DNA of 64,000 nucleotides from Escherichia coli (GCF_009931435.1 NZ_CP043414.1); one strand, 5' to 3'; positions 43,395 through 45,172 are shown, counted from the first letter of the stretch. Notes: generated by a model from the letters alone, not told the origin. A program made the numbers and translations.

Positions 43395-43891
43395 TTCGAG
43401 TAGAAATTCCAATTGATGCGCCGGGTATTGATGCCCTGCTGCGTCGTTCATTCGAAAGCGATGCGGAAGCGAAGCTGGTTCACGATCTGCGTGAAGATGG
43501 CTTTCTGACGCTGGGGCTGGTGGCGACAGATGACGAAGGTCAGGTCATTGGCTATGTGGCATTCAGTCCGGTTGATGTGCAGGGCGAAGACCTGCAATGG
43601 GTCGGCATGGCACCGCTGGCGGTAGATGAAAAATACCGTGGACAGGGACTGGCACGCCAACTGGTCTATGAAGGACTCGATTCGCTTAATGAGTTCGGCT
43701 ATGCCGCAGTGGTGACGCTGGGCGATCCGGCGCTGTACAGCCGTTTCGGCTTTGAACTGGCGGCACATCACGATCTGCGTTGCCGCTGGCCGGGCACTGA
43801 AAGCGCCTTCCAGGTACATCGTTTAGCGGATGATGCGCTGAATGGCGTAACCGGTTTGGTTGAGTATCACGAACACTTCAATCGCTTTTAA
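43388..43891 (+). CDS. yhbS: GNAT-family N-acetyltransferase YhbS
   Basis: 167 aa [24 protein letters not shown]; overlaps ubiT stop. Confidence 0.9.
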
Positions 43892-44180
43892 TCTTTGGGG
43901 TTTGCAGGCTGCTCAACAGTTCTGCAAACCCTGCGCCTTCTGCTACCAGACGCTCTTTTTGCCGTTTGGTCAGTTGCTTGATGCGATATTCCATCCGTAA
44001 CGCCAGCGAGCGGTCGCCCACTGGCGCGGAAAACGCCAGCGTCAGTTCTCCTTTCCCGCGCAGTGCTTTCGCCCCTTTTCCGCTTTGGTGCTGCTGATAG
44101 CGGCGTTCAACATCCGTGGTGATCCCGGTATAAAGCTTATTGTCGGCGGTACGGATCAAGTAAAGAAACCAGGGTGTCAT
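43878..44180 (-). CDS. yhbQ: GIY-YIG domain protein YhbQ
   Basis: ORF 43878..44192 trimmed to [27 protein letters not shown]; 100 aa; 3' end overlaps yhbS 3' end (convergent). Confidence 0.85.
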
Positions 44181-44230
44181 CGTCTGCGTCACATGTTAAG
44201 GTCAGGCCCACAGTATAAAAGAGAACAGCT

Positions 44231-44674
44231 ATGGAAACACTCACCGCCATCAGCCGTTGGCTGGCAAAACAACATGTTGTCACCTGGTGTGTGCAGCAGG
44301 AAGGGGAATTGTGGTGCGCCAATGCCTTTTATCTTTTTGATGCACAGAAAGTTGCCTTCTACATTTTGACGGAGGAAAAAACGCGTCACGCGCAGATGAG
44401 TGGGCCGCAGGCGGCAGTTGCTGGAACGGTAAACGGTCAGCCGAAAACGGTAGCGTTAATTCGCGGCGTGCAGTTTAAAGGTGAGATCCGCAGACTGGAA
44501 GGTGAGGAAAGCGACTTTGCGCGCAAGGCGTATAATCGTCGCTTTCCGGTTGCCAGAATGCTGTCGGCGCCGGTGTGGGAAATCCGGCTTGATGAAATCA
44601 AATTCACTGACAACACGCTGGGCTTTGGTAAAAAAATGATTTGGCTACGTAGCTCAGGCACCGAGCAGGCGTAA
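44231..44674 (+). CDS. yhbP: UPF0306 / PNPOx-like protein YhbP
   Basis: 147 aa [34 protein letters not shown]. Confidence 0.9.
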
Positions 44675-45172
44675 CGCCTCGCGGTTAAACGCGGGCAAAT
44701 CGTCCGGTGTCCGACTGGTAACCAGCTGATCTTTATCGACCACCACTTCCTGATCGTAAAATTCCGCGCCCGCGTTTTTAACATCAATCACAATCGGTTT
44801 AACGGCGGTCAGTTTGCGCCCCCGAATCACATCGGCGCTGATCAGCAGCTGCGGACCGTGGCAAATGGCAAACACCGGTTTGCCACTATTCACAAAATCA
44901 CGGGTAAAGGTGACAAAACGGTTGTCGCCACGCAGATAATCCGGTGAATGGCCGCCCGGTAGCAGCAGGGCATCAAACTCGGCTGGCGTCACTTCATCGA
45001 TGGATTTATCGATGGTCACGCTGGCTTCTCCTTTTTTCCCTTTCACCGTTTTACCCGCTTGTTTTTCAATGGTAATCACTTCGTGTCCGGCTTTACGGAA
45101 CTCGTCTGCGGGTGAAGTAAATTCTGAATCCTCAAATTCATCAGTGATTAAAACGGCAATTTTCTTACTCAT
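44654..45172 (-). CDS. yhbO: DJ-1/PfpI-family stress protein (protein/nucleotide deglycase) YhbO
   Basis: ORF 44654..45214 trimmed to [18 protein letters not shown]; catalytic AICHGPQ; 172 aa. Confidence 0.9.

Follow-up and report, generated by a model that had tools for sequence, protein, structure and literature searches.

In a 64,000-nucleotide (nt) stretch of Escherichia coli DNA (GCF_009931435.1, NZ_CP043414.1; hereafter called the window), the genes yhbS, yhbQ, yhbP, and yhbO form two neighboring convergent pairs, and within each pair the coding sequences (CDSs) overlap at their 3' ends. We consider it rather probable that the locus is an ordinary compact, tail-to-tail layout of real genes, in which the overlaps originate from coding constraint and the transcripts end inside the partner genes. 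These overlaps are annotated and the corresponding transcript overlaps have been catalogued, and thus the finding is real but already known. The arrangement is also statistically unremarkable and is a member of a common class. It therefore matters little beyond bookkeeping, and the locus chiefly illustrates how short convergent overlaps arise when a dispensable C-terminal tail meets stop codons that are encoded antisense to the partner gene.

The overlaps follow directly from the positions of the four stop codons. The yhbS open reading frame (ORF) ends with TAA at positions 43889 to 43891, and the TGA stop codon of yhbQ is the reverse complement of TCA at 43878 to 43880. Likewise, yhbP ends with TAA at 44672 to 44674, and the TGA stop codon of yhbO is the reverse complement of TCA at 44654 to 44656. 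At both junctions, each stop codon lies inside the partner ORF, as is characteristic of a convergent overlapping CDS pair. A preliminary description of the interval from the stop codon of yhbQ (43878) to the start codon of yhbO (45172) had given overlaps of 14 bp for yhbS/yhbQ and 21 bp for yhbP/yhbO, and both values are exact according to the sequence and the ORF list. That description had also named re-annotation of the stop codons as an outcome that would remove the overlaps, but RefSeq keeps the same ends. In the closest E. coli genome, the RefSeq/PGAP annotation runs collinear with the window and has identical CDS ends, and the same is true for K-12 MG1655 (yhbO, 3298974 to 3299492; yhbP, 3299472 to 3299915; yhbQ, 3299966 to 3300268; yhbS, 3300255 to 3300758). 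Furthermore, a 2.6-kb stretch of the locus is matched in 5,424 of 5,426 complete E. coli genomes at 95 to 99% identity.

There is virtually no chance that a wrongly placed stop codon or a spurious gene in each pair creates the appearance of overlap. The stop codons are unambiguous, all four proteins have conserved homologues, three of them carry recognized domains, and the overlaps recur in dozens of species, so this explanation is refuted by the sequence itself. The domains that had been proposed for YhbS (GNAT), YhbQ (GIY-YIG), and YhbO (DJ-1/PfpI) agree with Pfam, which additionally detects SCP2 and an NAD-binding fold at the locus. YhbP yields no match to Pfam; NCBI names it a "YhbP family protein," and 1,072 homologues were found in one search and 740 homologous cluster representatives in another. 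All four genes are conserved as protein genes across the related Enterobacteriaceae loci described below.

To place the arrangement in context, 75 convergent CDS overlaps have been counted in E. coli (Huvet & Stumpf 2014, PMC4161906). In the first 50 kb of the window, two of the eight convergent junctions overlap, and both are the ones examined here; the other six have gaps of 7 to 203 nt. The pairs resemble the tail-to-tail pairs described by Huvet & Stumpf in having a short 3' overlap made by stop codon movement, and they differ in that two overlaps stand side by side with a 50-nt divergent spacer between them. Elsewhere in the window, yhbX (+) and argG (-) converge with a gap of only 7 nt (24162 to 24170), and this pair also appears in the published list of excludons that is discussed below.

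We next compared 80 species-level Enterobacteriaceae loci fetched around YhbP, in which each tblastn match was followed to the first in-frame stop codon to locate the end of the gene. The yhbS/yhbQ overlap is exactly 14 nt long in 76 of 79 loci and 4 nt (TTAA) in the other three, all of which are Citrobacter loci with a 1-nt insertion. Of the 55 loci with an intact yhbO gene, 40 have a yhbP/yhbO overlap of 21 nt and 14 have one of 15 nt; in the single remaining locus, from a metagenome-assembled genome, the overlap is apparently 129 nt. The overlaps are therefore real and old, and are no accident of annotation. Beyond the Enterobacteriaceae, the convergent layout is kept but the overlap length is not. 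In Morganella, yhbS and yhbQ overlap by 22 nt and yhbP overlaps nrdG by 20 nt. An Enterobacterales contig has a 14-nt yhbS/yhbQ overlap with a different sequence and a 4-nt overlap between yhbP and a RidA-like gene. In Rahnella, yhbS and yhbQ are separated by a 27-nt spacer, and a same-strand orthologue of YraR directly follows yhbP. Thus, in these distant Enterobacterales, yhbP still overlaps a convergent neighbor of a different identity, namely the nrdG-like activase (locus L085, 3437 to 3456) or the RidA-like gene (locus L087, 3441 to 3444).

The alignment of the 80 loci also points to the origin of the overlaps. The YhbS C-terminus (..HFNRF*) is conserved, and its last codons contain invariant columns. 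Antisense to its Phe-Asn codons, TT(C/T)-A, lies T(G/A)A, so that the yhbQ frame invariably meets a stop codon there. The tail of YhbQ (about residues 80 to 100) is variable in sequence and carries in-frame indels. At the second junction, the stop codon of yhbP, TAA or TAG, lies antisense to a leucine codon (TTA or CTA) in the conserved YhbO tail (..ALRLLGA*), and in the window it is the TAA opposite a TTA codon. The yhbP/yhbO overlap is 21 nt in some loci and 15 nt in others because a different YhbO leucine codon supplies the yhbP stop. The last five to seven residues of YhbP, which follow W-L-R, are variable, and they are absent or replaced where yhbO is missing. For example, YhbP ends right after W-L/Q-R in Escherichia albertii, Escherichia whittamii, the Citrobacter freundii complex, Trabulsiella, and Kluyvera, all of which lack yhbO at this position, and therefore the overlapping YhbP tail is dispensable. 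As judged from these alignments, each overlap is shown to be a weakly constrained tail (that of YhbQ or YhbP) that is translated until it meets a stop codon provided by the antisense of the partner's conserved codons. The overlaps would accordingly be conserved because the C-terminus of one partner is constrained and the tail of the other is dispensable, such that selection on the overlap itself is not needed.

Published transcript maps indicate what happens to the RNAs at these junctions. A survey of MG1655 (Sanmartin et al., NAR 2025, PMC12288877) explicitly names both pairs, yhbO-yhbP and yhbQ-yhbS, among its 165 convergent excludons; a pair was included when RNA sequencing (RNA-seq) showed its transcripts to have overlapping boundaries in 50% or more of 58 samples. 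That survey is genome wide and purely coverage based, and its main text does not give the overlap length, terminator position, RNase III dependence, or reciprocal expression of these pairs. It reports higher synteny for excludon pairs, and, within the same text, convergent pairs could not be validated by p19 capture of double-stranded RNA (dsRNA).

A second data set bears on the yhbP strand. Adams et al. (2021, eLife, PMC7815308, Supplementary file 2) list a Rho termination region designated "antisense yhbO" at MG1655 3299102 (-), with a Rho score of 4.79 (p = 2.7e-9) built on 800-nt windows, so that its resolution is coarse. Reads upstream and downstream of this region number 77 and 20 without bicyclomycin and 115 and 143 with it. 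Mapped onto the window, the region lies opposite yhbO, with the yhbP stop about 370 nt behind it and the yhbO start codon 128 nt ahead. It shows that yhbP-strand transcription runs deep into yhbO and is terminated there by Rho, and this read-through is an instance of the catalogued suppression by Rho of antisense transcription. Only one of the four possible read-through directions at the locus is listed in that catalogue, whereas we infer the other three. In all four antisense extensions C exceeds G (C/G ratio, 1.09 to 1.42), a composition that is compatible with Rho loading. The supplements of TERMITe make no mention of these genes.

These data agree with the earlier proposal that convergent transcription reads into the partner gene, given the listing of both pairs as excludons and the Rho region within antisense yhbO. 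The accompanying claim that there is no room for terminators is correct in one respect, in that there is no intergenic DNA at either junction and a simple scan for a hairpin followed by a U-tract found none at either junction in the window. It does not hold in another, since a Rho region and hairpins are present inside the partner CDSs. A lack of intergenic space thus differs from a lack of terminators, since the partner gene itself can be the site at which Rho or an embedded hairpin acts.

The most prominent of these hairpins is a stable stem-loop at 43897 to 43932, just past the yhbS stop codon. Its minimum free energy (MFE) is -23 kcal/mol (z = -4.05), none of 200 shuffled sequences is equally stable, and the opposite strand folds with -20.3 kcal/mol. 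Covariation gives it modest support (at pair 27-58, 26 rows have GC and 13 have CG), and 72 to 78% of cells are paired compared to at most 57% in slid controls. Strong hairpins just past the yhbS stop are confined to Escherichia, Citrobacter, Salmonella, and some distant relatives. When such a hairpin was sought across the whole family by an alignment-free MFE scan, the median rank was 13 of 46, and a general feature of this kind was rejected. The 27-nt yhbS-yhbQ spacer of Rahnella holds a hairpin of -18.6 kcal/mol (z = -4.4). No significant structure was found at the yhbP/yhbO junction (z about -1).

Several other candidates for structured RNA near the first junction fared less well. A weak second hairpin is followed by a T-rich run, TCTTTTTGCCGTTTGG, that corresponds on the opposite strand to the conserved YhbQ motif TKRQKE. 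It is possible but unconvincing that this hairpin is the remnant of an intrinsic terminator; it exhibits no covariation and the simple terminator scan is silent there. As a terminator, the small hairpin of the E. coli type beside the T-run was discarded, since it reaches only -5 kcal/mol and is poorly conserved. We also discarded a terminator-like helix upstream of the T-run (alignment A2, columns 47 to 52 with 76 to 81), which is 85% paired but is equaled by shuffled controls and lacks covariation; it is uninformative because both of its arms encode conserved YhbQ residues. A minus-strand scan match at 44393 to 44381 was dropped as well, due to its weak fold (-8.4 kcal/mol, z = -0.08). In the Morganella morganii relative (locus L085, 2102 to 2138), a canonical Rho-independent terminator for yhbS is located inside the convergent yhbQ CDS, 30 nt past the yhbS stop. 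It has a 12-bp stem (seven G-C pairs), a 3-nt loop, and the tail TTTTTTCTGT, with a stability of -20.3 kcal/mol (z = -5.7), and its U-tract is the antisense of a lysine-rich YhbQ motif.

Overlapping bidirectional terminators, along with a model of termination by collision, have reportedly been described by Ju et al. in 2019. Applied to this locus, the stem-loop at 43897 to 43932 together with head-on polymerases would end both the yhbS and the yhbQ transcripts. The junction does offer what the model calls for, namely a stem-loop and convergent traffic, the stem-loop is stable on both strands, and the Rahnella hairpin also sits between the two stops. As with known examples, the convergent genes lack a canonical terminator and have a stem-loop at one junction. 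However, known bidirectional terminators are intergenic, usable by both genes, and Rho independent, with sharp 3' ends on both strands. Here, the stem-loop is within the yhbQ ORF, and on the yhbQ strand it ends (43897) upstream of the stop codon at 43880 to 43878, so that termination there would leave a non-stop yhbQ mRNA. The other junction has no comparable hairpin, and termination on the yhbP strand is Rho dependent by published bicyclomycin data (PMC7815308), which report no sharp 3' ends in the locus. Moreover, the model requires high expression for efficient termination, in addition to the stem-loop and the convergent traffic (Wang et al. 2022, bioRxiv 10.1101/2022.10.23.513370). For these reasons, we regard collision-dependent termination at this site as very unlikely.

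Our preferred explanation, that of a compact layout shaped by coding constraint, can be extended to a sequence of events. With no intergenic DNA left, transcripts end inside the partner gene, and both pairs appear among the convergent excludons because the mRNAs have complementary 3' ends. On the yhbP strand, transcription is stopped by Rho about 370 nt into antisense yhbO, as the published data show. The ubiT-yhbS transcripts may end at, or be trimmed back to, the stem-loop at 43897 to 43932, and the untranslated antisense extensions of yhbQ and yhbO could also be removed by Rho. Interference by polymerase collision or duplex cleavage would then probably be a weak and asymmetric by-product, in which the better expressed, induced partner dampens the weaker one. 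The ubiT-yhbS genes form a single transcription unit by reverse transcription-PCR that is induced by Fnr, and the yhbS product, HqbA, is an abundant and highly expressed Hfq-binding protein that regulates RNA binding by Hfq; a second promoter is possible. Thus, hqbA (Fnr, anaerobiosis) might dampen yhbQ, and yhbO, which is RpoS dependent (stationary phase), might dampen yhbP.

A number of observations count against this explanation. Selection acting on the overlap as such could account for its near-invariant length of 14 nt and for the greater synteny reported for excludon pairs. In E. coli, the stem-loop at 43897 to 43932 is not directly followed by a U-tract (the next bases are UGCGCCUUCUGC), and its 5' arm is missing from 27 of 78 distinct rows, so it is not conserved family-wide. 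It is a putative 3'-end determinant that no Term-seq end backs, and indeed there is no curated Term-seq 3' end in MG1655 3299000 to 3300799 (Adams et al. 2021, PMC7815308). At its 800-nt resolution, the Rho call has a downstream window that takes in yraR, which may have its own promoter. Finally, the window is not K-12 but 95 to 99% identical to it, and published coordinates were transferred by collinearity.

The first of these points is central to the idea that the overlaps form a selected excludon switch, kept for mutually exclusive expression through polymerase collision and cleavage of RNA duplexes by RNase III. With such a switch, hqbA and yhbQ would exclude each other under anaerobiosis, as would yhbO and yhbP in stationary phase. 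The presence of both pairs in a catalogue whose members are more syntenic speaks for it, as do the conservation of the overlaps across the Enterobacteriaceae, the extension of the convergent yhbS/yhbQ layout to Morganellaceae and Yersiniaceae, and the different regulators of the partners, Fnr and RpoS. There is also a precedent in mscL-arfA (Morra et al. 2023, PMC10070815), a convergent pair of stress-related genes with a 3' overlap of CDS and untranslated region that is conserved in Gammaproteobacteria, for which cross-regulation through antisense RNA and RNase III was shown experimentally. However, the non-stop mRNA biology of arfA has no counterpart here, and regulation at the present locus is hypothetical. 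The general failure of dsRNA validation for convergent pairs, as reported in the main text of the excludon survey, argues against a switch, and we found no locus-specific evidence of reciprocal repression or RNase III cleavage. Conservation of the overlaps is fully explained by the coding constraint of one partner and the dispensable tail of the other. Furthermore, Rahnella has lost the overlap, yhbO has been lost repeatedly, and in published work plasmid-borne yhbQ or yhbP deletion left the yhbS phenotype unchanged. We therefore judge a selected switch to be unlikely.

The history of yhbO raises one more alternative. This gene (window 44654 to 45299, including its upstream region) is repeatedly absent or decayed among related loci (L003, L004, L006-L008, L012, L014, L017-L022, L025, L029, L032, L070, L075, and L088), and in two Escherichia species representatives it is either a pseudogene or deleted. 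Without it, yhbP and yraR are directly adjacent in E. albertii, E. whittamii, the C. freundii complex, Trabulsiella, and the outgroup Rahnella, and in Trabulsiella the yhbP stop and the yraR start are 4 nt apart. The motif CTATAGTTA is common to the yhbP-yraR junctions of E. albertii and Citrobacter. From these comparisons, yhbO looks like an opposite-strand gene within an otherwise co-directional yhbP-yraR pair.

The order yhbP (+), yhbO (-), yraR (+) is the layout of a non-contiguous operon, in which yhbP and yraR would be co-transcribed across yhbO to the exclusion of yhbO expression, with read-through gated by Rho. In its favor, the two outer genes share a strand and are neighbors in genomes that lack yhbO, yhbP transcription continues into antisense yhbO for at least about 370 nt, and coverage farther downstream increases with bicyclomycin. 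Nevertheless, wild-type Rho stops most transcription before yraR, as the drop from 77 to 20 reads indicates, and the published list of such operons in E. coli has three entries, among which this locus does not appear (PMC12288877). A non-contiguous operon is thus quite improbable. An elaboration, in which a Rho-gated yhbP-yraR operon is chained to the hqbA/yhbQ excludon such that Fnr-driven hqbA silences yhbQ and RpoS-driven yhbO silences yhbP-yraR, strikes us as similarly doubtful.

If interference proved true, the expression of two poorly understood genes would be tied to hqbA, whose product regulates Hfq, and to yhbO, the RpoS-dependent deglycase gene. The E. coli excludome, most of which is untested, would also gain two tested cases.

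The features of the locus, which occupies about 42.8 to 46 kb of the window, are listed in Table 1.

Table 1. Features of the ubiT-yhbS/yhbQ/yhbP/yhbO/yraR locus, in window coordinates
Feature	Position	Strand	Remarks
ubiT	42870..43394	+	Annotation; SCP2 domain (Pfam); first gene of the ubiT-yhbS (hqbA) operon
yhbS (renamed hqbA)	43388..43891	+	GNAT acetyltransferase, Hfq-binding protein; ORF list, Pfam, annotation
yhbQ	43878..44180	-	GIY-YIG nuclease, 100 residues; ORF list, Pfam, annotation
yhbS/yhbQ CDS overlap	43878..43891		14 nt, TCAATCGCTTTTAA
Stable stem-loop	43897..43932	+	GGGGUUUGCAGG...CUGCAAACCC; starts 6 nt past the yhbS stop, inside yhbQ tail codons
Weak second hairpin, then T-rich run	43933..43966	+	T-rich run TCTTTTTGCCGTTTGG; -5 kcal/mol
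Divergent spacer, yhbQ start to yhbP start	44181..44230		50 nt
yhbP	44231..44674	+	UPF0306 / YhbP family, 147 residues; ORF list, homologues
yhbO	44654..45172	-	DJ-1/PfpI protein/nucleic acid deglycase; ORF list, Pfam, annotation
yhbP/yhbO CDS overlap	44654..44674		21 nt, antisense register codon-aligned
Rho-dependent termination region antisense to yhbO	~45044	+	Mapped via K-12 coordinates
yraR	45300..45935	+	Same strand as yhbP; annotation

Some minor features of the locus were also noted. The ubiT stop and the yhbS start share 7 nt (ATGCTAA, 43388 to 43394), which fits the published single transcription unit. The divergent spacer between yhbQ and yhbP is 49 to 55 nt long in 78 of 79 related loci. 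Because it spans only 50 nt in the window, the promoters of the two genes must overlap or sit within the opposite gene. A TATAAA sequence is located 12 nt ahead of the yhbP ATG, and the yhbP leader may be very short.

Within yhbP (44507 to 44547), a perfect 10-bp inverted repeat, GGAAAGCGAC ... GTCGCTTTCC, surrounds the palindrome TTGCGCGCAA and forms the most stable 50-nt window across related loci. It was rejected as an RNA element because RNAalifold keeps five pairs with no covariation, and it probably reflects the conserved ESD and RRFP codons, i.e., coding constraint. Rfam covariance models applied to 42600 to 46100 produced no hit at the gathering threshold and one chance-level match (E = 0.28). 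Elsewhere in the window, gathering-level Rfam matches correspond to the greA, rimP, and S15 leaders, the SraG small RNA, and two naRNA4/REP-type elements (15218 to 15339, 26023 to 26123, 30822 to 30892, 32405 to 32519, 32748 to 32919, and 47114 to 47185, as positions of the set). One of the naRNA4/REP-type elements is located between yraQ and dolP, just downstream of the locus.

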